IMG/VR virus record: IMGVR_UViG_3300045988_112257
Coordinates: 1-40,438 of that record
Source: a virus
DNA length: 40,438 bases
Strand: one strand, 5' to 3'
How positions within the stretch are numbered: position 1 is the stretch's first letter; the number at the start of each line of letters is the position of its first letter. Positions 1 through 40,438 of this stretch are shown here, piece after piece. The notes beneath the pieces are model-generated. The model was not told the DNA's origin. It searched no databases and saw only the letters and a list, made by a program, of their open reading frames with translations. Both the position numbers and the translations under genes were made by a program.

Positions 1-64
1 ACCTGCGCGATGCTGACCTGCGCGATGCTGACCTGTGCAATGCCAACTTGTACGGTGCCAACCT
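1..64. repeat. Terminal direct repeat. Nt 1-64 are identical to nt 40375-40438, consistent with assembly overlap of a circular or circularly permuted genome.
   Basis: Both ends read acctgcgcgatgctgacctgcgcgatgctgacctgtgcaatgccaacttgtacggtgccaacct. The overlap lies inside one continuous reading frame. Confidence 0.9.
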
Positions 65-2332: not shown

Positions 2333-3013
2333 ATGAAAACACTTAGATACGAGACACGGGATGCAGACGGGAATGACATTGTAAAGGATGTCGCAGTGAA
2401 GGAATTTGCGAGTGCCGATGCTGAGTTTAGATGCCACGTCTGCGGGCGGGAATGCAGCCAGGGCGTTAGAACGACGGATATTATCTCGGGCTCATTTACG
2501 GACTACGCGCTCATCGGGGATTATGTATGCAATGACTGCGCAGACCTTTTTAGCCTGTATTTTTACAGTTACATCAAAGACGCTGACGGGATAAGGCTGC
2601 TAAATGTACGGAGCATTCGGGACGAGATCACGCAGGAGCAAAAGCCGCCGTTTATGTTTGTGATAACTACATCACAGAAAAAGCATCTATTTTATCGAGC
2701 GAGAATGAATCATGTGCCGACACCATTCGCGGTGCAGCTTGAGACCGAGACGATATACACCACAACGAGCAGGATGCGGACGCTGTTTGATTTTGTTGAG
2801 TCGCTTATGACACTTGGGCAATCAAAAAAAGCGTTGGCGGATGGGGAGATGCGCTATGAAGTGATGCAAAAGGTCGGCGCGGGTGCATTTAACTACCTTC
2901 GGCGCGAGCTGAGAGCATCACGGGAGATACAAATACCAATCTACTGCGGACAAAAAAGAGATATAACAGACGAGGAGGCAATATGTTGTATAAATTCAAT
3001 ACTGACAGCGTAA
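2333..3013 (+). CDS. csf1: Csf1-like (Cas8-like) zinc-finger subunit of a type IV-B-like Cas module.
   Basis: A four-Cys finger (CHVCGREC ... CNDC) sits near the N-terminus. The protein is 226 aa and is the first gene of the operon directly upstream of the cas11/cas7/cas5-like genes. RBS is ataggagg. Confidence 0.5.
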   Translation: MKTLRYETRDADGNDIVKDVAVKEFASADAEFRCHVCGRECSQGVRTTDIISGSFTDYALIGDYVCNDCADLFSLYFYSYIKDADGIRLLNVRSIRDEITQEQKPPFMFVITTSQKKHLFYRARMNHVPTPFAVQLETETIYTTTSRMRTLFDFVESLMTLGQSKKALADGEMRYEVMQKVGAGAFNYLRRELRASREIQIPIYCGQKRDITDEEAICCINSILTA

Positions 3014-3417
3014 AACACGCGAGTGCGGCGCTACTGCTCTACGCAATGTACCGCAGCCGCAACAAAAACAGCCCGCTGAATGGGTTGGAGACATGGGACA
3101 GGTTTAACAGCTACATCCGCGGAGCGTGCCTAAAAAGCAGCACCACGGCAGAGTTTATGCAAAAATTCTGCCGCGCGGCGAAGATAGACAGCGTTAAACC
3201 ACGCTATTTGTCAACCGACGATCCTGTGCTAATGCCTGGAACCGGCGAGCTGATAATGAGCGATGCTATAAAGGACTACAGAATACCGATTATCGAGGAT
3301 AACAGTCTGCTGCGCATAATGTCGGATGAATCAATTTATCTGTGTATGCTTGTACGCGACCGCATTCAACGCGAAAAGATGGAGTATAAAGAGGAGGAGG
3401 CCGAATATGAGGACTAG
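2983..3417 (+). CDS. cas11: Cas11-like small subunit. The assignment rests on position and size.
   Basis: 144-aa protein, predicted helical, with an acidic tail. It overlaps csf1 by 31 nt and the cas7 start by 11 nt. RBS is gaggagg. Confidence 0.4.
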   Translation: MLYKFNTDSVKHASAALLLYAMYRSRNKNSPLNGLETWDRFNSYIRGACLKSSTTAEFMQKFCRAAKIDSVKPRYLSTDDPVLMPGTGELIMSDAIKDYRIPIIEDNSLLRIMSDESIYLCMLVRDRIQREKMEYKEEEAEYED

Positions 3418-4294
3418 TATAAAATACAGGCTGCTTTCGCCTGTTTCACACATTGGCGAGACCGCCAGCACCGGGAGCTATTTTCAAACCGTTCTCACGA
3501 CACAAGGGAGGCTGCCTGTAATAACCGGCAACAGCACACGCGGCCAAATCAGGGACAGCGCGGCGCTCCACCTCCTAAACACGCTCGGCATAAAAGTGGA
3601 CAAAGAGATATTCAATGTGCTTTTTTCGGGCGGTAACCTCTCGGGTACGATGCGAGATGATGTGGAACGAGCAAAACAAATTCGCAATTACTATCCGGCG
3701 GTCTCACTCCTTGGCGGCGGCATGGGGACAATGATCATGGCGGGTAAGCTGCTGGTGTCGTTTGGATACCCTGTGTGCACGGAGAGCGAGCAGTTTACGG
3801 GCATAGACAGCGCCCAATCATGGCATGATATGATTGAAGAGATTGAGTTTACACGCACCGACGATACCAAAAACGATATAAAAGCCGGCCGAATAGTTGA
3901 CATAAACGATGATTCCGGGGCGGGGACAGCATCAACGCAGATGCGCTACTCCGTACAGTATATTGCAGCGGGCACGGAGATTGTACAAAACCTTATTACA
4001 CTTGATGGCACAACGCCGCTTGAAATCGGCGCACTGTATGCAGCTATATGCGAGTGGTTTAAGGTGCCGAGGCTTGGCGGCATGGCGGCAAAAGGGTTTG
4101 GCTTGTTCGATGCTGTTGTCGGCGACCGCGATATAGTCCTTAGCGGCGGCAGGATAACGCTAAAACCACAAATTGCAGATCTCATCGATGCATATGAGAC
4201 TTTTGTCCGCGAGGAGGGCGGCGAGCATTTATCACTCCTTGCCGCACCGAAAGGAGGGAAGAAGGGTGGCAAAAAAGCCAACAACGCCGATTAA
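3407..4294 (+). CDS. csf2: Cas7-family RAMP backbone subunit (Csf2-like).
   Basis: Motifs read: IKYRLLSPVSHIG, PVITGNSTRGQIRD, LFSGGN, SLLGGGMG, and a C-terminal glycine-rich loop RLGGMAAKGFG. The start was moved from the ORF-track 3326 to the ATG at 3407, which follows gaggaggagg. Confidence 0.75.
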   Translation: MRTSIKYRLLSPVSHIGETASTGSYFQTVLTTQGRLPVITGNSTRGQIRDSAALHLLNTLGIKVDKEIFNVLFSGGNLSGTMRDDVERAKQIRNYYPAVSLLGGGMGTMIMAGKLLVSFGYPVCTESEQFTGIDSAQSWHDMIEEIEFTRTDDTKNDIKAGRIVDINDDSGAGTASTQMRYSVQYIAAGTEIVQNLITLDGTTPLEIGALYAAICEWFKVPRLGGMAAKGFGLFDAVVGDRDIVLSGGRITLKPQIADLIDAYETFVREEGGEHLSLLAAPKGGKKGGKKANNAD

Positions 4295-4973
4295 AGTCAC
4301 GGCGCACCTGCTTGACGGCAGAGTAAATACAGCAGACGGGATCATCATGCTGGACGCGATATTGTATCATGCGTGGTTTAGCAGACACAAGCCGGAGGTC
4401 TTAGAGGGCTGCGGCAGCACGCAATATGACGGATATACGGGGCTGCCGCTGCGGCAGCTCCCCGATAATAGATGGGCGGCAAGCAGAGGCGTATTTAAGA
4501 CCGAGGGCAAAAACATCGAATACATAAATAGGAGACCCAACTTTTTCGATGCGGACAAGATCGGACATCTTGACATGGAGACGGGTATAATATCGGACAG
4601 CGTAGGCGTATACCGGGCGTACCGCATACCGCGAGTTGTCAGCACTGTCAGCGATATAGAGTTTTATGCCATGGGCGACAAGGCTAAAGTGCAAGACCTA
4701 TTGACGGCGATCCAGGCCGTAGGCAAAAAGCCCGCGGCGGGATATGGCTTTGTGGCCGAATGGAGTGTAGAGGACTGTGACGAGGATTACAGCCTGTGGC
4801 ACCCCGAGTACGGACTTATGCGCCCGGTGGTGGTCGGCAGTGACGAGGCAAAGGGGCTTGAGCTTAGTACATATCCCGTTATGCAATACGGAATAAAGCC
4901 ACCTTACTGGAAACCCTGCAATATGCGTTTGTGCCATGTGCCGATTACCGCGGCGGAGAATGCGACAACATGA
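4266..4973 (+). CDS. csf3: Cas5-family RAMP subunit (Csf3-like).
   Basis: Motifs read: IKVTAHLLDG..., IMLDAILYHAW, and a glycine-rich loop AVGKKPAAGYGF. A GTG start at 4266 follows aaaggaggg. The upstream part of the ORF-track frame lies inside cas7. Confidence 0.6.
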   Translation: MAKKPTTPIKVTAHLLDGRVNTADGIIMLDAILYHAWFSRHKPEVLEGCGSTQYDGYTGLPLRQLPDNRWAASRGVFKTEGKNIEYINRRPNFFDADKIGHLDMETGIISDSVGVYRAYRIPRVVSTVSDIEFYAMGDKAKVQDLLTAIQAVGKKPAAGYGFVAEWSVEDCDEDYSLWHPEYGLMRPVVVGSDEAKGLELSTYPVMQYGIKPPYWKPCNMRLCHVPITAAENATT

Positions 4974-5743
4974 CTATTGACGATTTTGTTAAGATAGGCG
5001 CGCTCAGGTCGGGCATGCGACAATACGCCGAAAAGCGAGACAAAGCAATAAGGCTTTGCGAAGAGCAATTCCGCACGCACAAAAGACCGTATGTTGCAAT
5101 AAGCGGCGGCAAAGACAGCGTTGCTATGGCGTACATTGTGGACGCTGCGGCAAGACGCGCCGGGGCGGATTATAGATTGTGGCTGCATTGCTCGGATGCA
5201 TCGTTCCCCGGCACGGTAGAGACATGCCGCAAGGTGGCCGCGGCGGTTGGCAGAGAACTCGATGTATTTGAAAGCAAGGATTCTGCGTTTGACGCGATAG
5301 CACGTCCGCAAAAGGCTGCATTTGGGAAAAGCGGCGTATTCTTCAGCTCTGTGCGCGAGTACGCAAAGGACAAGGATTTATGCTTTGTGGGTGTTCGGGC
5401 TACGGAGAGCCGGAGACGGATGCGTGCCGCTAAAGCACATGGGCAAGTGTTTGACAGCGCATCAATGGGCGATGTTACGGTTTGCCATCCGCTCCTATGG
5501 TTTACCCTGTATGATGTCGCGGCGGCGCTACACGAGTACAATACACCAATACACCCGATATACAAAAAAATAACAATAGAGCGCGGGGAAAACCGGTGCG
5601 GTGAAGAATCGTTTATCCGGCTCGGTTATATAACGTCACGCGACCTGCTCAACAAAGGCACAGCGGTGTTTCTGCGGATAAACTACCCAGACGAGTTTAA
5701 CAGGCTTGCAGCCGCGTATCCAGAGATACGGCTATGGGTGTAG
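4970..5743 (+). CDS. cysH: PAPS-reductase-family PP-loop protein (cysH-like accessory gene of type IV-B loci).
   Basis: PP-loop motif VAISGGKDSVAMAY. The start forms an ATGA overlap with the csf3 stop. Confidence 0.75.
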   Translation: MTIDDFVKIGALRSGMRQYAEKRDKAIRLCEEQFRTHKRPYVAISGGKDSVAMAYIVDAAARRAGADYRLWLHCSDASFPGTVETCRKVAAAVGRELDVFESKDSAFDAIARPQKAAFGKSGVFFSSVREYAKDKDLCFVGVRATESRRRMRAAKAHGQVFDSASMGDVTVCHPLLWFTLYDVAAALHEYNTPIHPIYKKITIERGENRCGEESFIRLGYITSRDLLNKGTAVFLRINYPDEFNRLAAAYPEIRLWV

Positions 5744-8473: not shown

Positions 8474-9826
8474 ATGCAAGCAATAACCGAATATTTGACG
8501 CGCAACGGGTACACGGCGGTTGACGATGCCTATTATGCGCAAATCGCCCTGTGGCAGTCGTGGTATCAGGGCAAGGTGAACAGCTTCCACACTTACACGC
8601 AGTACAACGGACAGCGCAAGGTAACACGGCAACGCAAGACAATGGGAATGGCTAAACGTTTCTGCGAGGATTGGGCGGCATTGCTGCTCAATGAAAAGGT
8701 GCGCATAAGCGTGGGGAACGAAGCGGCGCAGGCGGCAATGGACGAGATACTAAAGCGCAACCGTTTCAGTGTGAGGGCTAACCAGCTTGTGGAGCTGGCG
8801 TTCGCCCTTGGCACGGGCGCATTCGTTGAGTATCTGGACGGCGGCGAGGTAGTGATAGACTATGTGCGCGGGAGCATGGTATACCCGCTGGCATGGGATA
8901 ACGGCATCATTACGGAGTGTGCCTTTGCGTCAGAGCGCAAGCAGGGCGCAGAGAAGTATATATACCTGAATATCCACCGCAAGGATGGGCAAGGGCGATA
9001 CGTTGTCGAAAACAAAATGTTCCGCCGTAACGGCGACACCATAAGCCCCGCCGACCTTCCCGAAGGTGTAGCGGATGAGGTGGTGACGGGTTCAGAGATA
9101 CCGTTCTACCAGATAATCACGCCGAATATCGTCAACAACGCGGATTTATCGTCCCCGATGGGCATATCGGTATACGCCAACGCGATAGACAACCTCCAAA
9201 ACATAGACCTTGTTTTCGATGCGTATGATAACGAGTTCCGGCTCGGTAAAAAGCGTGTGCTTGTCCCGCTTACGCTTACGCAGACCACAATGGCCGACAG
9301 CGGGGTAACAAAGCCCGTTTTTGACGATAATGACGTTGAGTTTTATGTGATTGATACCGGAGAGCAGAATACACAGAAAATTGAGGAAATGAACGGTGCG
9401 CTGCGGTATGACGCTTTTGAGGCAGGCATAAAGACCGCTATAAACCTTGCGGCCTATAAATGCGGCTTTGGCGAAAATCGATACCGCTTTGAGGGCGGCA
9501 CGGCTATGACTGCAACGCAGGTGATATCGCAGGACAGCGACCTTTTCCGCAATCTGAAAAAACACGAGCTTATACTCGATGCGGCCTTGCAGGGGCTTAT
9601 AAGAGCTATCGCGCAGATGGCGGGCATAGGCATAGGCGAAATAACCATAGAATTTGACGATAGTATCATCGAGGACGAGGACAAGGAGCGGCAACGCTTC
9701 ATGCAGGAGATTCGGGAGGGCTTACGGCAGCCGTGGGAATACCGCGTCAAATACTTTGGCGAGGCCGAAGAACAGGCGAAGGCAATGACGGCTATACAGA
9801 CTATCGCGGAAGGGTTTGAGGCATAA
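8474..9826 (+). CDS. Portal protein (SPP1 gp6-like).
   Basis: The N-terminal pattern YAQIALWQSWYQGKV..FH.Y..YNG is characteristic of this portal family. Size is 450 aa. Confidence 0.85.
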   Translation: MQAITEYLTRNGYTAVDDAYYAQIALWQSWYQGKVNSFHTYTQYNGQRKVTRQRKTMGMAKRFCEDWAALLLNEKVRISVGNEAAQAAMDEILKRNRFSVRANQLVELAFALGTGAFVEYLDGGEVVIDYVRGSMVYPLAWDNGIITECAFASERKQGAEKYIYLNIHRKDGQGRYVVENKMFRRNGDTISPADLPEGVADEVVTGSEIPFYQIITPNIVNNADLSSPMGISVYANAIDNLQNIDLVFDAYDNEFRLGKKRVLVPLTLTQTTMADSGVTKPVFDDNDVEFYVIDTGEQNTQKIEEMNGALRYDAFEAGIKTAINLAAYKCGFGENRYRFEGGTAMTATQVISQDSDLFRNLKKHELILDAALQGLIRAIAQMAGIGIGEITIEFDDSIIEDEDKERQRFMQEIREGLRQPWEYRVKYFGEAEEQAKAMTAIQTIAEGFEA

Positions 9827-24770: not shown

Positions 24771-25514
24771 GTGAAAAGATACTTTGCAATGGTGCTTGCC
24801 GTTGTGCTGCTGTGCATATGCACGGGCGCACTGGCTATGGGCTGGGGACGCGCGGACAATCCGCCCCCGACCTACACCGTGACCGTCACTAAGCTGGACA
24901 AGGTGGCGACCACAAGCGGCGCGGCCTATACCCCTGCACCGGGCAAGGCTGCTACAGTCGGCACGGTGGTATACTTTACGGCAAAATTTGCAGATGCCGA
25001 AGGCAATTCCGTGCAGGGCACTATCAATCTTACGGATATGGACGTGCTGTATCTTGACGGCGATGTAGTCGCCGCGATAGTCACAGGCGCATACCCCGCC
25101 GTGCGGGCGGTATACGAGTATACCACCCCATTGGCGGAGCTGACCTATGACGGCAAGCCCGTGACCATAAGCGGGGATACTGTGACCATAGGCAGCTTGA
25201 CATTCGTCCGCCGCAATGGCGTGGCGGTAGATGTGTCCATAGCGGGCGGCCTTGCCGACCTGACCCGCGAGTTGAACACGCTGAGTATGACGCTTGACGA
25301 CATCTACGCGGGCAGGGTATACATGGACGATGCCGCGCTTGTGGCAAATCTCGGGCAGCACATCAAAGCCGAGGCCACGGCGGTATGGGGTGCTGATGGC
25401 GTGGTAGTGCGCACACCCGGCTTGCCGCAGACCGGCTCCGCGCCCGTGTATATAGGATTTGTGATGATACTGGCGGCTTTGGCCTTGGGGGTGCGTGTAT
25501 GGGCAAAAAGATAG
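24771..25514 (+). CDS. Secreted LPXTG cell-wall-anchored surface protein.
   Basis: GTG start. Signal peptide MKRYFAMVLAVVLLCICTGALA. The C-terminus has LPQTGS, the hydrophobic stretch APVYIGFVMILAALALGV, and the basic tail RVWAKR. Confidence 0.7.
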   Translation: MKRYFAMVLAVVLLCICTGALAMGWGRADNPPPTYTVTVTKLDKVATTSGAAYTPAPGKAATVGTVVYFTAKFADAEGNSVQGTINLTDMDVLYLDGDVVAAIVTGAYPAVRAVYEYTTPLAELTYDGKPVTISGDTVTIGSLTFVRRNGVAVDVSIAGGLADLTRELNTLSMTLDDIYAGRVYMDDAALVANLGQHIKAEATAVWGADGVVVRTPGLPQTGSAPVYIGFVMILAALALGVRVWAKR

Positions 25515-26176
25515 ACGATTTTGTCGCATACCTGAATAGCCATCTGGGCGACGCTTACGTCTGGGGCGCGCAGGGCGAAAGGGTAGACAACCGCGCCGAC
25601 CTCGAAAAATGGGTGCGGCGCAAGGAAACCTCACGCCGCGAGACCGAACGCGCCCTTGCGTACATCAAAAAAGCCGCCAAAACGCCGCTGTATGCTTATG
25701 ATTGCAGCGGCCTTATCGTTCATTGGCTTAGGGACATACGCGGGCTGATAGACAGCGATACCAACGCCCAAGGCTTATACAGACAGTGCAAGCAGCAGGG
25801 CAAGCTTGCCGCGTGGCAGATGCAAGCGGGGGATTTGGTATTTAGGTACAGCTTCGCCAAGGGCAAAATGGGACACGTGGGCGTGTATGTCGGCAACGGC
25901 ATGGTGATAGAGGCACAAGGCCGTGACGCTGGCGTAGTGATGCGCCATCTGTCTTACGGCGGCTGGACACATCAGGGCAGACACCCCGCGCTGGCCGAGG
26001 ATACCGCCCCAACCGTCTTTAGGCTGACATCGCCCATGATGCGCGGCGAAAACGTGGAGCTTATGCAGACCGCATTGAACGCCTGCGGTTACGATTGCGG
26101 CAAGGCCGATGGAATATGCGGCAAAGCCACAATGACGGCTGTAAAGGCGTTTGCAACAGCGCATACAGAGGTGTAA
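25499..26176 (+). CDS. Endolysin: NlpC/P60 endopeptidase with a C-terminal PG_binding_1 domain.
   Basis: Catalytic Cys context YAYDCSGLI, His context GHVGVYVGNGMVIEA, and C-terminal MQTALNACGYDCGKADGICGKATMTAVKAF. Confidence 0.8.
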   Translation: MGKKIDDFVAYLNSHLGDAYVWGAQGERVDNRADLEKWVRRKETSRRETERALAYIKKAAKTPLYAYDCSGLIVHWLRDIRGLIDSDTNAQGLYRQCKQQGKLAAWQMQAGDLVFRYSFAKGKMGHVGVYVGNGMVIEAQGRDAGVVMRHLSYGGWTHQGRHPALAEDTAPTVFRLTSPMMRGENVELMQTALNACGYDCGKADGICGKATMTAVKAFATAHTEV

Positions 26177-26494: not shown

Positions 26495-26773
26495 ATGACG
26501 AACGAATTTTTTACCTGGGCGGTGCTTTTGACTTACGCGGGGGCGACCCTTGCAACCAGCCTTGTAACCCAGCTTATCAAGGGCGTGGGCTTTATCGACA
26601 AGATACCCACGCGCCTGACCAGCTATGTAATTGCGCTTGTGGTGCTTATTGCCGCCACCTTTTTCACCGGCGGCCTGACCCTTGAGGCGGGTGCGCTGTG
26701 CGTGATAAATGCCGTGGTTGTGTCCCTTGCCGCCAATGGCGCGTATGATGCCATAGCCCGCGACCGGAAGTAA
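26495..26773 (+). CDS. Holin.
   Basis: 92 aa with multiple hydrophobic helices and a charged C-terminus (ARDRK). It is adjacent to the endolysin gene. Confidence 0.6.
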   Translation: MTNEFFTWAVLLTYAGATLATSLVTQLIKGVGFIDKIPTRLTSYVIALVVLIAATFFTGGLTLEAGALCVINAVVVSLAANGAYDAIARDRK

Positions 26774-26840
26774 GCTTGCCGCCGCCCCTCTGCGACACTA
26801 AAAAGGTCGGAGGTGATAGGCCGATGAGAAGCCGGCCTGT

Positions 26841-27080
26841 GTGGTGGACAAAAATATTTTGCAGACCCTATCCCGTGCGGAGTGGGAAGGGATAATCTAC
26901 CAGCGGATTTTCAGCGAGCGTGACCGCTGGCTTGTGGCGCGGCATTTGCTGGATGGTGTACCGTATGACAGGCTTACAGCGGAGTATCAGGCGCGGTACA
27001 CAGATGCGCCGCTGGAGTATGACCAAATCCGCCGCCGATACAAGGCAGCGGAGAGAACCCTTATAAAATATGCCCCCTAA
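26841..27080 (+). CDS. Small helical, possibly sigma-r4/HTH-like protein.
   Basis: GTG-initiated ORF. The strong RBS ggaggtga at 26809-26816 serves an out-of-frame ATG at 26824 instead, so the start is uncertain. Confidence 0.4.
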   Translation: MVDKNILQTLSRAEWEGIIYQRIFSERDRWLVARHLLDGVPYDRLTAEYQARYTDAPLEYDQIRRRYKAAERTLIKYAP

Positions 27081-27099
27081 TGGGGGCTTTTTTATTTTT
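27072..27099 (+). terminator. Rho-independent terminator.
   Basis: gccccc-taat-gggggc followed by ttttttattttt. The stop codon lies in the loop. Confidence 0.75.
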
Positions 27100-27105
27100 G
27101 GGGGC

Positions 27106-27134
27106 TTGACATATGCTTGATGCTGTGGTATTTT
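27106..27134 (+). promoter_or_regulatory. Promoter of the mini-array transcript.
   Basis: TTGACA (27106-27111), a 17-nt spacer, then an extended -10 TGgTATTTT (27126-27134). Repeat 1 begins 7 nt downstream. Confidence 0.6.
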
Positions 27135-27140
27135 AATAAT

Positions 27141-27231
27141 GTCATCCGGCAACGGATGAGGATTGAAATATTTAACTTTTCGTTTTTGCGTCTGGGACGC
27201 ATGCCACCCGCTTGCGGGTGTGGATTGAAAC
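27141..27231 (+). CRISPR. Mini-array or solitary-repeat unit. Two type I-C-like repeat hairpins (27141-27169 and 27203-27231) flank one 33-nt spacer (27170-27202).
   Basis: R1 is GT-CATCCG-GCAA-CGGATG-AGGATTGAAAT. R2 is GC-CACCCG-CTTG-CGGGTG-TGGATTGAAAC. Both share the same architecture: a 6-bp stem, a 4-nt loop and an 11-nt handle of the ..GGATTGAAA[T/C] type known from I-C repeats. The stem carries a compensatory T>C / A>G change. The two repeats match at only 20 of 29 positions. Confidence 0.55.
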
Positions 27232-27267
27232 ATTATTTATCTTTGGTGGGGTTTCAAACCAAAGAAA

Positions 27268-27296
27268 AAGATGCACCGCAGTGTATCTTTTTTTTC
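27268..27296. terminator. Bidirectional rho-independent terminator, closing both the mini-array transcript and the convergent gene 27307..27576.
   Basis: aagatgcac-cgca-gtgtatctt (9-bp stem with one G-U pair), followed by a T-run on the + strand and tttttcttt on the - strand. Confidence 0.7.
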
Positions 27297-27306
27297 TTTC
27301 CCCCGG

Positions 27307-27576
27307 TTATTTCACCCAACCCCAAAGATTTATCCAGTTTTTGGGACAAATTATCCGGTACATATAGGGCGGATTCCTCCAGTTGAGCCAGTCGAATATC
27401 CAGGCATCACCCCATTCATTATCAGCCGCCAGTGCATCCAGCTCCGGTATCCGCTCGTCCGATACGCAGTACACCCCGTAGCCCTCGTCCGTGATGTAGT
27501 GGCGTAAAAACTCCATGTGGTACTTTTCGGCTAAGGCCATCAGCGTGGCCTTGGTTCTCGGCATCCTTGCTTCCAT
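27307..27576 (-). CDS. Hypothetical small Trp-rich protein (89 aa).
   Basis: Second gene of the leftward unit driven by the 27982 promoter. Confidence 0.55.
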   Translation of the reverse strand: MEARMPRTKATLMALAEKYHMEFLRHYITDEGYGVYCVSDERIPELDALAADNEWGDAWIFDWLNWRNPPYMYRIICPKNWINLWGWVK

Positions 27577-27623
27577 TTTTTCTCTCCTTTGGGGCGGTGC
27601 TGCCGCCCCTTACCCTCTGTGTC

Positions 27624-27908
27624 TTAGCGGTTCAGCGTCTCGGCGGCGTGCTTGGCTACTGCCGCATCGTAGGCGGATTCGCAGTCCTCGTAGCTGTCAA
27701 AGTCTATATCCAGCTCATAGCACAGCGCCTCGACAAGATTCGGCTCCCACTCGGCATCGTCGTCTATGGCCGCTATAAGCTCATCTGCCGTAGCCGCGCG
27801 GACCTCGTTGCGGGGGAAGTCTTTTTCTGCTACCCGCCACATGGGGATAAAATCTTCGCCATACTGCTCGCGGGTCTCGGTGCCTTCAATCGCTTTGTAA
27901 ACCTTCAT
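27624..27908 (-). CDS. Small highly acidic protein (94 aa). Candidate anti-defence or DNA-mimic protein.
   Basis: Hand count gives 25 D/E versus 9 K/R. It is the first gene after a consensus promoter, and gggag lies upstream of the ATG. Confidence 0.6.
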   Translation of the reverse strand: MKVYKAIEGTETREQYGEDFIPMWRVAEKDFPRNEVRAATADELIAAIDDDAEWEPNLVEALCYELDIDFDSYEDCESAYDAAVAKHAAETLNR

Positions 27909-28019
27909 TTTTTTAACTCCCTCTGGGGCTTCAGCCCCTTGCTTTATCTTATGGCTATATTATACAGCAGATTTTATACTTTGTCAAGCGTTTTGCCTGA
28001 CAAAATTAAAAATATTTTT
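27909..28019 (-). promoter_or_regulatory. Consensus promoter, operator-like inverted repeat and conserved leader (copy A).
   Basis: On the minus strand: TTGACA (27987-27982), 17 nt, TATAAT (27964-27959). The palindrome TTGTCA-N11-TGACAA (27981-28003) overlaps the -35. The leader contains the hairpin ggggctgaagcccc. About 110 nt are shared with 29127-29238. Confidence 0.75.
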
Positions 28020-28022
28020 GCC

Positions 28023-28502
28023 CTACATATATATGCCGAAAACCTCTGCCAATGTGGCCTTGTGCTTTTGGGGGATTGGCCGCCTGCCACTCGTCCAGTC
28101 AGATACGGCCTGTCGGCTCATGCCACAAACATTGCCGACTTGCTCCAACGTTAGCCCCTTTTCGCGCATCTTTTCCGCAAGATAGTCGGGGTCGTTAAGG
28201 ATGGGGGCTGCCTTGCCGCGATAAAAAGCCAAGTCCCACATACATTGCTGCTGCGCGCTTATGACCTTATCACCATCGTCAAAATCTTCGGGGGCAAGCG
28301 GCTGGATCGCGTCGCTTATGGCGCGATCAAGGGGGGGCGTCATTTTGCGGGCGGCCATCAGCCACCGCATAGACATTGCAAAGCCGTGTGCCGGGCGGCG
28401 TTGCGCCTCCGCGAATAGCGCCGGCTCGCTAAGCTTATCGGGGCTGACTTGCCACGCCAGCCCGTAGATATACCCAAGTGTTTTTACTGCTTCATCTCGC
28501 AT
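28023..28502 (-). CDS. HTH (XRE-type) DNA-binding protein. Aca-like candidate regulator.
   Basis: C-terminal LTLEQVGNVCGMSRQAVSDWTSGRRPIP helix-turn-helix. It is the second gene of the unit driven by the 29201 promoter. Confidence 0.65.
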   Translation of the reverse strand: MRDEAVKTLGYIYGLAWQVSPDKLSEPALFAEAQRRPAHGFAMSMRWLMAARKMTPPLDRAISDAIQPLAPEDFDDGDKVISAQQQCMWDLAFYRGKAAPILNDPDYLAEKMREKGLTLEQVGNVCGMSRQAVSDWTSGRRPIPQKHKATLAEVFGIYM

Positions 28503-31512: not shown

Positions 31513-32655
31513 TTAATTACCGCCGTTGCCGTGCGCTTTGGGGCTGGCAACTTTACGGCAACTTTTTTCAAATGCGCCCTGTAACTGCTTTGCACTGTAT
31601 TTTTCCTTCTGCGCCGAAAGGTGTGAATATATTTCAAGCGTGATTTTCGCGTTGGCATGGCCTAAATATCTTTGGGCGGAAAGCACGTCCACGCCCGCGT
31701 TATATAGTACACTGGCATAATTATGCCGAAGGTAATGCGGGGTTATGACCGATATCATCCGCCCGCCCTTTTCAATCGCGTCAATCTCCGGCGCGATATC
31801 ATATAGCCGCGCCATTAAGTCGTCCCATAGGCGGTATCGTGTCGCATTGCGGTGATATGACCCTGTAGACGACGGTACTACATACGACTGCGGCAGCCCG
31901 CGCACGGGGCGCAGCTTGTCCGCCAGTTCGCGCGGCATGGGGATTGTCCGCACGGACTTATCCGTTTTGGGTGCATCTATCTCCCCTGTCTTGCCCGCCG
32001 CCTGCTGCTCTATGCGGATTGTCCCCGCCTTGAAGTCAATGTGCCGCCATTGCAGGCCGCAGGCCTCGCCGTAGCGCATACCCGTGTAGTACAGCAGGGC
32101 AAGCATTAATGTGCCGTCCTCGTCCATCAGGCGCAGAACCGCATCCGTCTCCGCGTCCGTCAATGCCCTGCGCGTCTCCTTGGGCTTGGATGGGATTGTA
32201 AGCCCGACCGTGATATCCCGCGGGATAAGCCCCTGACTATACGCCCGCTGAAATACCCCGCGCAGGATTGTAGATATGTTGCCTATTATGGCGGCGCATG
32301 TGTCGGCCTTGGCGTTCAGCAGCCGCTGCAAGTCCTCCGTGGTGATAGCCGTCAGCCTTCGCCCCGCAAGCGCGGGAAAGATGTGCTTATATAGCGCCGT
32401 GCGGTATGACATCTGCGCGGATACGCCTATATGCGGCTGCTTGTACACCTCGTACCATGTCAGTGCGTATCGGTCAAAAAGTACTCCCTCCGGTGCAGCG
32501 TTTGCGCCCGTGACGTACTTTTCACGCGCCGCTGCCTTAGCCGCTTCTAATTCTTTTTTGGTGCGTCCTGACACATACTTGACTATGCTTTTCCCGCTTG
32601 CGTCCGTGCCGACTGTGATTTTTGCACGGTAGCGCCCATCTTTTTGCTTCGCCAT
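31513..32655 (-). CDS. int: Tyrosine recombinase / phage integrase.
   Basis: Catalytic signature contexts TGMRYGEACGL (Arg), HYLRHNYAS (H-x-x-R) and LGHANAKITLEIYSHL (His...Tyr). Confidence 0.9.
   Translation of the reverse strand: MAKQKDGRYRAKITVGTDASGKSIVKYVSGRTKKELEAAKAAAREKYVTGANAAPEGVLFDRYALTWYEVYKQPHIGVSAQMSYRTALYKHIFPALAGRRLTAITTEDLQRLLNAKADTCAAIIGNISTILRGVFQRAYSQGLIPRDITVGLTIPSKPKETRRALTDAETDAVLRLMDEDGTLMLALLYYTGMRYGEACGLQWRHIDFKAGTIRIEQQAAGKTGEIDAPKTDKSVRTIPMPRELADKLRPVRGLPQSYVVPSSTGSYHRNATRYRLWDDLMARLYDIAPEIDAIEKGGRMISVITPHYLRHNYASVLYNAGVDVLSAQRYLGHANAKITLEIYSHLSAQKEKYSAKQLQGAFEKSCRKVASPKAHGNGGN
31546..31565. repeat. Pair of GGCAACTTT units (right pair), located inside the 3' end of int.
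   Basis: tGGCAACTTTacGGCAACTTTtt. Confidence 0.45.
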
Positions 32656-32763: not shown

Positions 32764-33699
32764 TTACATGTTCATCAAATCGTAAAATACATTCTCCGAT
32801 ATTATCTGCAAGTCCGCCCCCTTTGCGATCAGGCTTTCAGCCCGTTTCAGTTTGCTGCTTTTGCCGTCCTTGATCCTGCTGTAGTCGCTCGCGCCGAGGA
32901 TTAGGAAATTGGTGTCCTTGGTGACCCCGTTGTCGCACAGTCCGCCGACATTTACCACGGCCTGCGCCGCGTCCAGGCGCACCATTTTGGCAAGCGTGCC
33001 AGTAAATACGCAATGTTTGCCGTATAGCGGGTGCATCTCGTCCACCGCCGTACCGTCTGCGGTAAGCGCGTGCAAGTCTGGGCGGGCGCTGCCATGGCTT
33101 GCCATCGCCGCCGTGAAATCGTCCCTGCCTATGCCCGCGTCTATATGTGCCAGCAATGCCTTATAACAGTCAATCGTAGCATGGCAGTCACCTATAGCGC
33201 GATGGGCTTGCGCGTGGTCAACGCCGAGCGCGTTCACAATATCCCTAAGCCTGTGGTGCTTCAAGTCGGGCAGCACTCGGCGGGATATGCGCATGGTGTC
33301 TATATAGCCATTGCTCACGGGCGATAAACCCTGACGTTCACAATTATCATAGATAAAATTGATGTCAAAATTTATATTATGGCCTAAAATGATATCGTCG
33401 CCCAGAAATTCACGGGCGGCGGGAAGCACCTCCGGCAGCGCCGGGGCGGCTGCAAGCATATCGTTTGTGATGCCCGTCAGCTCCGTCACAAATTCGTCTA
33501 TCTCCACGCCTGGGTTTACCAGCGTGCTATACTCCGCCGCTACTTCGCCGTGGCGGACGCGCACCATGCCTATTTCTATGATGCTATCCCATTCCGGGTC
33601 AAGCCCTGTCGTCTCCAAGTCCAGCGCAACAAAATCCTCCGGCAGCGCATTTACGGCCTTGCCCTTGTTTTCGCGGACTTTTGCAAGCTTTTTTTTCAT
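32764..33699 (-). CDS. DEDD (DnaQ/epsilon-like) 3'-5' exonuclease fused to a C-terminal BRCT domain.
   Basis: Exo I FVALDLETTGL, Exo II HNINFDINF, Exo III HRAIGDCHAT. BRCT-like segment CVFTGTL...GGLCDNGVTKDTNFLILG. The start was moved to the ATG at 33699, after gacaggagga. Confidence 0.75.
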   Translation of the reverse strand: MKKKLAKVRENKGKAVNALPEDFVALDLETTGLDPEWDSIIEIGMVRVRHGEVAAEYSTLVNPGVEIDEFVTELTGITNDMLAAAPALPEVLPAAREFLGDDIILGHNINFDINFIYDNCERQGLSPVSNGYIDTMRISRRVLPDLKHHRLRDIVNALGVDHAQAHRAIGDCHATIDCYKALLAHIDAGIGRDDFTAAMASHGSARPDLHALTADGTAVDEMHPLYGKHCVFTGTLAKMVRLDAAQAVVNVGGLCDNGVTKDTNFLILGASDYSRIKDGKSSKLKRAESLIAKGADLQIISENVFYDLMNM

Positions 33700-33725
33700 G
33701 TCGTTTCCTCCTGTCTTTTTACAAA

Positions 33726-34196
33726 TTACAAAATTGAGCCTTTCATGCCCTGCGCGGCTTCTGCGTGCCGCCTGAGCCATCCCACGGCGGGGTTTAACAC
33801 ATCGCACAAAAACAGCCCTATCAATATTCCGGTTACGCTTACGCTGTACACCACCGCCCACCGAAGCCATTTGCCAAGATGCTGTATGCGCCTATCCTTT
33901 TCCGCAAGCAGCAGCCTGACTGCGTTGGTGTACCTCTGTGTAGGCTCTTCGGCCTCCTGCGGCACGGCTCCGTAAATCTCGTCCACAAATTCATGCATTG
34001 TCGCGCCTAAGCCTTGGGTAACAAGTATTTCATAAGTTGCCATTGGCGTTCCGGTTGTGCCTTGCAGCGTGCGGGTAAGCGTGGAGGCGGCTATGCCGCT
34101 ACGCTTTGACACGTCCTGCAAGGAGATCCCTCGCTTTTCACGCATTCGCGTAAACGCATCTGCGTATTTCCGATTATTGTCCTCAAAAATGCCCAT
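33726..34196 (-). CDS. Membrane-tethered XRE-type HTH regulator.
   Basis: HTH ISLQDVSKRSGIAASTLTRTLQG and a C-terminal TM segment WAVVYSVSVTGILIGLFLC. The start was moved to the ATG at 34196, after aaggggag. Confidence 0.6.
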   Translation of the reverse strand: MGIFEDNNRKYADAFTRMREKRGISLQDVSKRSGIAASTLTRTLQGTTGTPMATYEILVTQGLGATMHEFVDEIYGAVPQEAEEPTQRYTNAVRLLLAEKDRRIQHLGKWLRWAVVYSVSVTGILIGLFLCDVLNPAVGWLRRHAEAAQGMKGSIL

Positions 34197-40230: not shown

Positions 40231-40438
40231 AAAAAATATCCGATACGGAATTAAAGGCAATTATCTATAAGCACGCAAAATGGGTAAGAGGTGAGGATGA
40301 CGGGGATTGTGCCAACTTGTACGGTGCCAACCTGTGCGATGCTGACCTGCGCGATGCTGACCTGTGCGATGCTGACCTGCGCGATGCTGACCTGCGCGAT
40401 GCTGACCTGTGCAATGCCAACTTGTACGGTGCCAACCT
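40227..40438 (+). CDS. Pentapeptide-repeat protein, N-terminal part. It is truncated by the window end and continues at nt 65 of the window after the 64-nt overlap.
   Basis: ATGA overlap with the VRR-NUC stop. It reads [51 protein letters not shown]... built from 15-nt tandem DNA units. Confidence 0.8.

Follow-up and report, generated by a model that had tools for sequence, protein, structure and literature searches.

The 40,438-nucleotide (nt) stretch of viral DNA analysed here (IMG/VR record IMGVR_UViG_3300045988_112257, positions 1 to 40,438; hereafter the window) carries a small RNA gene in which two hairpin units, R1 and R2, that resemble the repeats of type I-C CRISPR systems stand between a strong, near-consensus promoter and a strong intrinsic terminator (Table 1). 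The gene lies between the lysis genes and the repressor gene, at the lysis/lysogeny junction of the phage genome. A preliminary description of the window had proposed that this is a stand-alone phage transcription unit, complete with a TTGACA-17-TGgTATTTT promoter, R1, a 33-nt spacer, R2 and a terminator. Our reading of positions 26700-27700 located all of these elements in the proposed places, and the unit indeed has a promoter and a terminator of its own.

Table 1. Positions of the elements of the RNA gene, followed by those of other genes and signals of the window.
Feature	Position	Strand	Details
Promoter	27106-27134	+	-35 box TTGACA 27106-27111; 17-nt spacer; TG 27126-27127; -10 box TATTTT 27129-27134
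R1	27141-27169	+	29 nt; stem 27143-48/27153-58 (6-7 bp); loop GCAA (GNRA); 11-nt tail AGGATTGAAAT
psiS1 (pseudo-spacer)	27170-27202	+	33 nt; first ~13 nt A/T-rich and variable, then T-run and hairpin
R2	27203-27231	+	29 nt; 6-bp stem 27205-10/27215-20; CTTG tetraloop; tail TGGATTGAAAC
psiS2	27232-27261	+	variable loop 27232-27250; anti-handle GTTTCAAACCA 27251-27261
Bidirectional intrinsic terminator	27262-27297	both	hairpin 27262-27295, then T-run; common to the RNA gene (+) and ORF89 (-)
Upstream intrinsic terminator	27072-27097	+	hairpin 27072-27087 and T-run; GCCCCCTAATGGGGGC then T-run; kept in all relatives
ORF79 (upstream gene)	26841-27080		
ORF89	27307-27576	-	89 amino acids (aa); convergent with the RNA gene; same cassette; common terminator
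Perfect-consensus promoter	27959-27987	-	TTGACA-17-TATAAT; 12/12 sigma-70; directly downstream of the repressor gene; predicted to drive ORF94 (27624-27908) and ORF89 toward the shared terminator
Helix-turn-helix (HTH) repressor	28023-28502	-	
NlpC/P60 endolysin	25499-26176		
Tyrosine integrase	31513-32655		
Type IV-B module	2333-5743	+	Csf1 2333-3013; Cas11 2983-3417; Csf2/Cas7 3326-4294; Csf3/Cas5 4173-4973; CysH-like 4931-5743

The promoter, with its extended -10 element (TGgTATTTT, 27126-27134), scores 10 of 12 and is conserved in 29 loci, among which it differs by single-base changes only. It lies 7 nt upstream of R1 and points in the sense orientation of I-C repeats, and transcription would start at about 27141, the first base of R1. 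On the upstream side, the terminator that belongs to ORF79 (ORF, open reading frame) would insulate the RNA gene against read-through. An exact 9-nt direct repeat, TGGGGGCTT, is found at 27081-27089 and 27099-27107, on either side of the T-run between that terminator and the -35 box. On the downstream side, the terminator hairpin ends in a U-run when read on the minus strand as well, and among relatives of the locus its stem shows compensatory changes (GATGCAC/GTGCATC versus GATGCGC/GCGCATC). The 160-nt transcript folds with a z-score of -4.9, and none of 200 shuffled sequences folded as well (0/200). Judged by these signals, the locus appears to be a stand-alone promoter-to-terminator gene on a phage, for which a constitutively transcribed small-RNA gene is the best explanation.

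R1 and R2 begin 62 nt apart and are two 29-nt units that consist of a hairpin followed by GGATTGAAAY, with the common formula GY + CAYCCG + 4-nt loop + CGGRTG + WGGATTGAAAY. The exact motif GGATTGAAAY occurs in the window in these two places only, each time after a perfect 6-bp hairpin. A hand count confirmed the earlier statement that the two units agree at 20 of 29 positions and that their stems differ by a compensatory change, a T-A pair in R1 being a C-G pair in R2. Their I-C-like character, which had also been claimed, is supported by several comparisons. The I-C tail (T/A)GGATTGAAA(C/T), which would become the 11-nt 5' handle of a CRISPR RNA (crRNA), is exact in both units, and a G+C-rich hairpin stands directly 5' of the tail in both, as it does in I-C repeats. 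The comparison with repeat databases that the preliminary description had suggested gave the Rfam model CRISPR-DR9 as the best match of both units, although the scores (22.4 bits, E = 0.009, for R2 and 17.6 bits for R1) are below the gathering score of 45.

A closer counterpart is present in a Phycisphaeraceae metagenome-assembled genome (MAG; L282, the L numbers being our designations for comparison loci), in which a 17-copy array of the 32-nt repeat GTCACCCGCTTCACGCGGGTGTGGATTGAAAC adjoins cas5c, cas8c and cas1c (the proteins match Cas5c at 1.5e-73, Cas8c at 1.3e-149, and Cas1c). The GT form of R2 that is carried by several relatives of the window's locus, GTCACCCGCTTGCGGGTGTGGATTGAAAC, is this repeat minus three loop nucleotides (CAC); the 5' GTC, the sequence of the stem and the 11-nt handle are shared, and the window's own R2 differs from it by one further base. 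The window units are nevertheless only 29 nt long, with a 4-nt loop, whereas canonical I-C repeats have 32-37 nt, and in contrast to a canonical I-C array the window has no array of identical repeats, no leader and no adaptation or interference genes of that type; I-C cas genes were not found anywhere in the window. All repeats of I-C arrays that we inspected, including those at 120 genome loci, exceed 29 nt and are mostly about 32-37 nt long; the genome scan for I-C repeats allowed loops of 3-10 nt, and the matches listed were dominated by environmental repeats of 36-37 nt. The 29-nt form with a 6-bp stem and a GNRA or CUUG tetraloop was seen in stand-alone units only, the loop being GCAA or GTAA in R1 and CTTG in R2 throughout the window's RNA family. 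When metagenomes were scanned for the compact repeat, the matches were 15 copies of this family, one independent phage unit and one environmental array, and none of them lay inside a cas locus. From this resemblance in sequence and fold we take R1 and R2 to be shortened mimics of type I-C repeats.

The 33-nt segment between R1 and R2, psiS1, contains a conserved inner hairpin (GCGTC-TGG-GACGC, 27188-27200) that is absent from the preliminary description. The 30 nt 3' of R2, psiS2, would not be a free second spacer, because GTTTCAAACCA at 27251-27261, which we call the anti-handle, can form pairs at 10 of its 11 positions (91%) with the tail of R2 (27221-27231). Pairing of the last-repeat tail with GG(T)TTTCARRCC some 10-20 nt downstream is part of the minimum free energy (MFE) fold in 15 of the 18 two-repeat versions of the locus and in all three one-repeat versions that keep the anti-handle. 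Within this helix 93% of the cells of the alignment are paired, A4 is always mismatched and U5 faces A or G; the changes seen there (U-A to U-G) appear to be those that the pairing tolerates. In most versions the bases immediately 3' of the handle pair with TAGGT, and the change of ATTTG to ATCTA strengthens this pairing. In the modelled fold, what might be taken for a variable seed in psiS2 is largely the loop and inner stem of a hairpin. The proposal that the terminator hairpin could serve as a third repeat for the 33-35 nt downstream of R2 finds no support, since in these same 15 two-repeat and three one-repeat versions the stretch folds back on the handle.

psiS1 (ATTTGATTTTTCGTTTTT) itself resembles a degenerate handle/anti-handle unit with a weak, G-U-rich anti-handle, and this likeness to a degenerate copy of the psiS2 unit suggests that the two-repeat form arose by tandem duplication. 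The sequences just after the handles take many forms in the family, among them ATTTAACTTT, ATTTGATTTT, ATTTGACTTT, ATTTGTTTTT, ATCTACTATT and ATTATTTATC. Anti-handles also follow independent solitary I-C repeats in L122 (9 of 10 positions Watson-Crick), in Paenibacillus aceti (L229) and in Tautonia (L193). Counted over all solitary repeats, they were found downstream of 6 of 69, compared with 2% for internal repeats, and half of the six belong to the window's RNA family; this modest enrichment weakly suggests that the anti-handle is a feature of that family and of a few others and not of I-C solitary repeats in general. In one gut I-C array (L034, minus strand) the last repeat has GTTTAAATCC 4 nt downstream of it, a sequence complementary at 9 of 10 positions to the handle of that same repeat, and this may prevent the production of an extraneous crRNA from the array end. 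In Cas13 arrays, hairpins formed between leader and repeat are reported to block the production of extraneous crRNAs (PMC13187072). The idea of an intramolecular pairing that hides part of a repeat is the same, and an anti-handle could act in this way at the last repeat, but the CRISPR type and the position are different there and the comparison is an analogy only.

Relatives of the locus were collected by scans of IMG/VR, of metagenomes and of assemblies. Together they amount to 22 different versions of the locus, of which 18 have two repeats and 4 a single repeat, all within the same promoter/terminator frame. In every two-repeat version psiS1 is one shared sequence, in which substitutions fall mainly in the first 13 nt and the T-run has 5, 6 or 7 bases, giving a segment of 33, 34 or 35 nt. 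Because only point mutations and T-run indels separate the versions, psiS1 was inherited with modification and not acquired as a spacer, and a full-length guide would be thrown out of register by such indels. Three of the one-repeat versions have their repeat joined directly to the sequence that follows R2, and one of these is a chimera of R1 and R2, as expected from recombination between the repeats; the fourth retains R1 and half of psiS1. Measured as mean pairwise identity, conservation is highest in the R2 handle (100%, invariant in 18 versions) and in the hairpins (94-97%, the psiS1 hairpin having 97%), and it declines through the first 13 nt of psiS1 (85%) and the anti-handle (80%) to the psiS2 loop (59%). 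The preliminary description had held that its interpretation would suffer if related phages failed to keep the hairpin and handle; they keep both, at the identities just given. An accessory cassette of 474 bp comprising the RNA gene and ORF89 (27117-27590) is exactly missing from the 92%-identical phage MT835524, which keeps the -35 box.

Stand-alone units made of a promoter, an I-C repeat and a terminator were also found independently of this family, in L122 (at about 9636, minus strand), L161 (about 8499), L148 (about 750, minus strand), L318 (about 13012), L229 and L193. Those of other phage lineages are compact 29-nt units with the loops GTAA (L122), GAAA (L161) and GGAA (L148/L318); L229 and L193 are bacterial genomes, and the repeat units there have 5-nt loops. 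Support for the predicted structure comes from thermodynamics, from the compensatory pair that distinguishes R1 from R2 and from this recurrence in independent lineages. As a separate observation, many viral contigs also carry I-C mini-arrays of two or three repeats, the first of which is degenerate in its 5' half (L058 at 5130-5300, L007, L055, L078, L079, L092, L107, L108 and L116); the two spacers of L058 are near-copies of each other, a look that has been described for the arrays of the viral regulators called Cracrs, which are considered below. On another viral contig (L170; 6461, 8287 and 8845-8990) the 32-nt I-C repeat with the closest resemblance to R2 occurs as two solitary copies and in a mini-array of three repeats.

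The guide function that had been proposed for the 33-nt spacer could not be upheld. Neither the exact 33-mer nor the conserved 20-mer of psiS1 matched anything but the loci themselves among the 2.9 million viral contigs of IMG/VR, and patterns of psiS1 and psiS2 with every sixth position left free gave the same result in that collection. BLAST searches for a protospacer found none among the INPHARED phages or the PLSDB plasmids, and blastn-short found none in the window, in the cassette-less MT835524 or in the other fetched loci. Partial matches in L321 and L080, which have no TTC protospacer-adjacent motif (PAM), were judged to be due to chance. Scanning the window, the phage family and the host flanks for TTC followed by a seed gave no match at 9 nt, and at 8 nt one match compared with 5.9 for shuffled seeds. 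The search for a protospacer beside a 5'-TTC, which the preliminary description had put forward as a check, was thus negative in phages, plasmids and host flanks alike. The relatives tell against a guide as well, since the segment is inherited, its T-run varies its length between 33, 34 and 35 nt, and the four one-repeat versions have lost it. In the opposite direction, none of 2,156 spacers from the fetched I-C arrays matches the window. An adaptive CRISPR array is ruled out by the divergence of the repeats (20/29) and by the inheritance of the same pseudo-spacer in all two-repeat relatives, and there are no I-C cas genes in the window. To judge from these sequences, the locus is neither an adaptive array nor a demonstrable guide.

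Our results suggest instead that the locus imitates the pre-crRNA of a host type I-C system and acts as a repeat-mimic RNA anti-CRISPR of the kind called Racr, a reading to which we assign a probability of somewhat less than one half (roughly 0.45). Of the two functions that the preliminary description had offered, that of a decoy is the one that fits. What is conserved, the hairpin and the 11-nt GGATTGAAAY handle, are the parts expected to contact Cas proteins, and what varies freely are the loops and the sequence just after each handle. The decoy is favoured because the conserved parts are the Cas-contacting ones, because the variable parts are hairpin loops, because one-repeat versions persist and because the last handle is masked, which should make it an unproductive substrate for Cas5c. 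In more general terms the locus is best read as a candidate type I-C RNA anti-CRISPR, a Racr-like decoy and possibly a Cracr-like regulator.

Cas5c is the processing nuclease of type I-C systems, and it remains on the 5' handle. In the proposed mechanism the host Cas5c would bind the mimic hairpins, and the two-repeat form would yield a product of crRNA size, in which 33-35 nt stand between the 11-nt handle and a 3' hairpin. Having no target, this product would occupy Cas5c, Cas7 and Cas8c. Where a repeat is the last or the only one, its handle would be locked in a duplex with the anti-handle, so that cleavage or the loading of Cas7 would be blocked and a stable dead-end complex would result. 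RNA made from the lysis/lysogeny junction of the prophage would lower I-C interference against the phage or the prophage, and the protein encoded by the convergent ORF89 is a candidate partner, for example an anti-CRISPR protein (Acr).

Solitary I-C repeats of phages have already been catalogued as Racr candidates, and one of them, RacrIC1, inhibits a I-C system (PMC10651486). The same study reported that even a crRNA without a target reduced type I-F interference by competition (PMC10651486). Racrs, which are solitary repeat units, tie up Cas proteins in aberrant complexes and inhibit interference. The window's locus has the anatomical features by which Racrs have been recognized: it is a virus-borne mimic of a repeat, it stands apart from any CRISPR-Cas locus of that type, and its promoter lies within 250 bp of the repeat. 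RacrIC1 comes from a Bifidobacterium pseudocatenulatum prophage, in which it follows acrIC5 on the same transcript (Camara-Wilpert et al. 2023, PMC10651486). Both it and the window's locus are phage- or prophage-borne mimics of I-C repeats, each equipped with signals for its own transcription and remote from cas genes of that type, and both are accessory and adjoin a small gene of unknown function. Whereas a single repeat is a feature of Racrs, the window has two, although four related versions have one. The window's repeats also differ from RacrIC1 in being divergent from each other (20/29), in flanking a conserved segment of crRNA size, in being shortened to 29 nt with GNRA/CUUG tetraloops, and in the pairing of the last handle with an anti-handle. 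Furthermore, RacrIC1 stands beside acrIC5, whereas the window's neighbour, ORF89, is convergent and unrelated to known Acrs; acr genes are frequent neighbours of Racrs, a supportive trait and not a defining one. The supplementary tables of the Racr paper (PMC10651486) that were searched do not list the repeats of this locus. The locus adds to the known candidates for phage RNA anti-CRISPRs (solitary repeat units and mini-arrays, Racrs and Cracrs) and does not constitute a new class, but its anatomy is unusual.

Several considerations weigh against the decoy. The expression of the RNA, its processing and the inhibition are predictions from the sequence. The host is known only as Christensenellales-like, and the presence of a I-C system in it is an assumption. 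A pure decoy has no obvious need of a conserved, crRNA-sized 33-nt segment with a hairpin of its own, and the variable positions sit where the seed of a type I guide would be, which would also fit a regulatory guide. ORF89 matches no known Acr. The sequences of the family are too much alike for covariation statistics to be informative: 97.6% of the pair cells of the alignment are standard pairs, yet most columns are invariant.

The position of the variable nucleotides leads to the possible but rather doubtful explanation that the RNA is a regulator of the Cracr type. Cracrs are viral copies of the host's CreR/CreA regulators, often in the form of arrays with two "spacers", which act as repressors of cas or creT promoters by means of at least 9 PAM-proximal nucleotides, and nine I-C arrays of this sort have been predicted (Liu et al., bioRxiv 10.1101/2024.10.29.618823); the host CreR/CreA regulators (bioRxiv 10.1101/2023.03.10.532045) and regulatory mini-arrays of phages (Shmakov et al., 10.1101/2023.03.03.530964) have also been described. 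A viral copy of such a crRNA-like host regulator would be processed by Cas5c and loaded into the host I-C Cascade, and a PAM-proximal match of about 9-12 nt would park Cascade on a cas or creT promoter, which would shut down Cas synthesis while the RNA would also compete with immune crRNAs; psiS1 and psiS2 would then be two seeds for promoter variants of related host strains. The window's order of pseudo-repeat, pseudo-spacer, pseudo-repeat, pseudo-spacer and terminator is that of the two-spacer Cracr arrays reported for I-C, which like it lie on Caudoviricetes genomes and have degenerate repeats and spacer-like segments, and R1 and R2 are degenerate with respect to each other (20/29), as repeats are in the genes of crRNA-like RNAs. 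Variability is focused in the first 10-13 nt or so after each handle, the T-run indels fall outside this putative seed, the seeds are A/T-rich as promoters are, and individual 10-mers are found now at the one position and now at the other, ATTTAACTTT being psiS1 in the window and psiS2 in L033. What defines a Cracr, however, namely a PAM-proximal cas/creT promoter match of at least 9 nt and similarity to a host CreR/CreA, was not found in the sequences searched: no TTC-plus-seed match was present in the phage family or host flanks, no host CreR-like copy or target came from the metagenome scan for the compact repeat, and the genome-scan matches listed included no gut host. The predicted hairpin, of which the psiS2 "seed" would form the loop and inner stem, explains the variability without a target, and psiS1 may be a degenerate copy of the psiS2 unit. 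A genuine mini-CRISPR array, whose 33-nt spacer the host I-C Cascade would use against a competing phage or plasmid for superinfection exclusion, we consider quite improbable. Its middle product would have the canonical size of a I-C crRNA (an 11-nt handle, a 33-35-nt spacer and a 3' hairpin), and virus-borne arrays that target related viruses are known; the mini-arrays of archaeal SPV-type viruses likewise consist of two repeats and one spacer on a virus and rely on the Cas proteins of the host. Their spacers match related viruses, whereas psiS1 has no match in the 2.9 million viral contigs, INPHARED, the plasmids or MT835524. It is also inherited and not acquired, its indels would break the register, it contains a stable internal hairpin, and one-repeat versions have lost it completely.

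It is improbable, too, that the RNA is unrelated to CRISPR, as a regulator of the ORF94-ORF89 operon or of the lysis/lysogeny junction, or that the locus is a decaying relic of a captured host array. Such explanations draw on its convergence with a strongly promoted operon with which it shares a terminator, and on the fact that neither a target nor a host I-C system has been demonstrated. A relic, however, would not have preserved its consensus-like promoter intact, both hairpins perfect and the 11-nt handle invariant through 22 versions in which the neighbouring positions vary, and units that likewise combine a promoter, a compact I-C repeat and a terminator arose in no fewer than three other lineages. 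The type IV-B module raises a further alternative, in which the RNA would be the missing component of the phage's array-less IV-B (Csf) complex, perhaps matured by the host Cas5c, and would give the phage a self-supplied RNA-guided binder; this we regard as very unlikely. The remark in the preliminary description that the phage might serve a IV-B module of its own was correct as to the module, but the link to the RNA is unsupported. The module is complete, with PADLOC E-values of 2.5e-33, 8.8e-35, 5.2e-51 and 1.3e-41 for its genes and with the Pfam families PAPS_reduct and RAMPs, and it is without an array, Cas6 or DinG and without a repeat-like motif nearby. The alternative is favoured by the presence of a whole Csf1/Cas11/Csf2/Csf3/CysH-like set on the same 40-kb genome, by the fact that for IV-B systems, which have neither an array nor Cas6, the source of the RNA is an open question (PMC8175902), and by the RNA locus being present on each of the 3 IMG/VR contigs with a IV-B module that could be checked. 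MT835524 has neither the module nor the RNA cassette. Against it, a distance of 22 kb separates the two loci, and the RNA locus was found on 22 IMG/VR contigs but close Csf2 homologues on only 4, a suggestive difference given that many of these contigs are partial. Repeats of this style also stand alone in phages and bacteria that are unrelated (L122, L161, L148/L318, L229 and L193), and the handle is the canonical I-C handle recognised by Cas5c. The solved IV-B complex had bound heterogeneous RNA and not the co-expressed crRNA (PMC8175902). The RNA locus and the IV-B module are likely to be independent.

As for the genome that carries the candidate decoy, the first and last 64 nt of the window (1-64 and 40375-40438) are identical, and because of this terminal overlap the window is a complete genome, assembled as a circle of about 40,374 bp. 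The phage is temperate and siphovirus-like, with genes for a terminase, an SPP1-type portal and a minor capsid protein. Beside the integrase gene there is also a gene for an RNase T-type exonuclease fused to a BRCT domain (32764-33870, minus strand). Identical integrase genes are found on many circular gut contigs of about 40 kb, and integrated copies are found on contigs of 62-200 kb (ERZ27244945 k141_9748, ERZ27244961 k141_231538 and ERZ28563613 scaffold_599 among them), whose flanking genes recur unchanged in MAGs named Christensenellaceae or Christensenellales. A protein search with the AddB of the flank returned "Eubacteriales" only, at 45% identity, a search for Cas7c homologues returned Lachnospiraceae proteins only, and the genome scan for I-C repeats had no gut host among the matches listed. 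In one integrated copy (L334, 14873-20240) the host flank contains a defence-type cluster, namely genes for an HD protein, McrBC-like proteins, an AAA ATPase and LigT, followed by AddB. The nearest isolated phage is Acutalibacter phage Fontainebleau, with a portal identity of 38%. ORF79 accompanies the RNA locus in nearly all relatives that were checked and is indexed in 1,669 blocks of the assembly collection.

The ORF89 protein is a member of an unannotated family that forms about 58 clusters at 50% identity; the members have 80-90 aa and the motif PITxE...IPELD...YRIxCPxxWxDLWGW, of which CPxxWxDLWGW is C-terminal. An AlphaFold2 (AF2) model of the protein has a predicted local distance difference test (pLDDT) score of 88 and a predicted template modelling (pTM) score of 0.78, and we found no match to it in Pfam, PHROG or PADLOC and no Foldseek match in the PDB or BFVD. 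A homologue with 35% identity (L148, 425-676; L148/L318) stands in the same convergent arrangement beside an independent compact I-C solitary repeat, and in L336 about 450 nt separate a further homologue from a degenerate I-C repeat; in four other short contexts of homologues no repeat was present. This association with repeats is suggestive of a partner of the anti-CRISPR type.

If the RNA works as proposed, the few known RNA anti-CRISPRs would be joined by one that is widespread in the human gut, and they would extend to hosts of the Christensenellales type. The combination of one promoter/terminator frame that carries one or two mimics with repeats trimmed to 29 nt, hyperstable tetraloops and a masked last handle would hint at the minimal determinant of Cas5c binding, and the same anatomy suggests how a mimic may escape conversion to a functional crRNA. 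A new anti-CRISPR or accessory protein may reasonably be sought in the ORF89 family, whose confidently predicted fold has no known relative. Were the RNA after all to belong to the IV-B complex, it would supply the long-sought source of the RNA of IV-B systems and a function for them, as a phage-programmed binder or as a crRNA sponge alongside the mimic. The presence of a IV-B module and an RNA mimic together on a 40-kb phage offers a compact system for asking which RNAs IV-B complexes bind.

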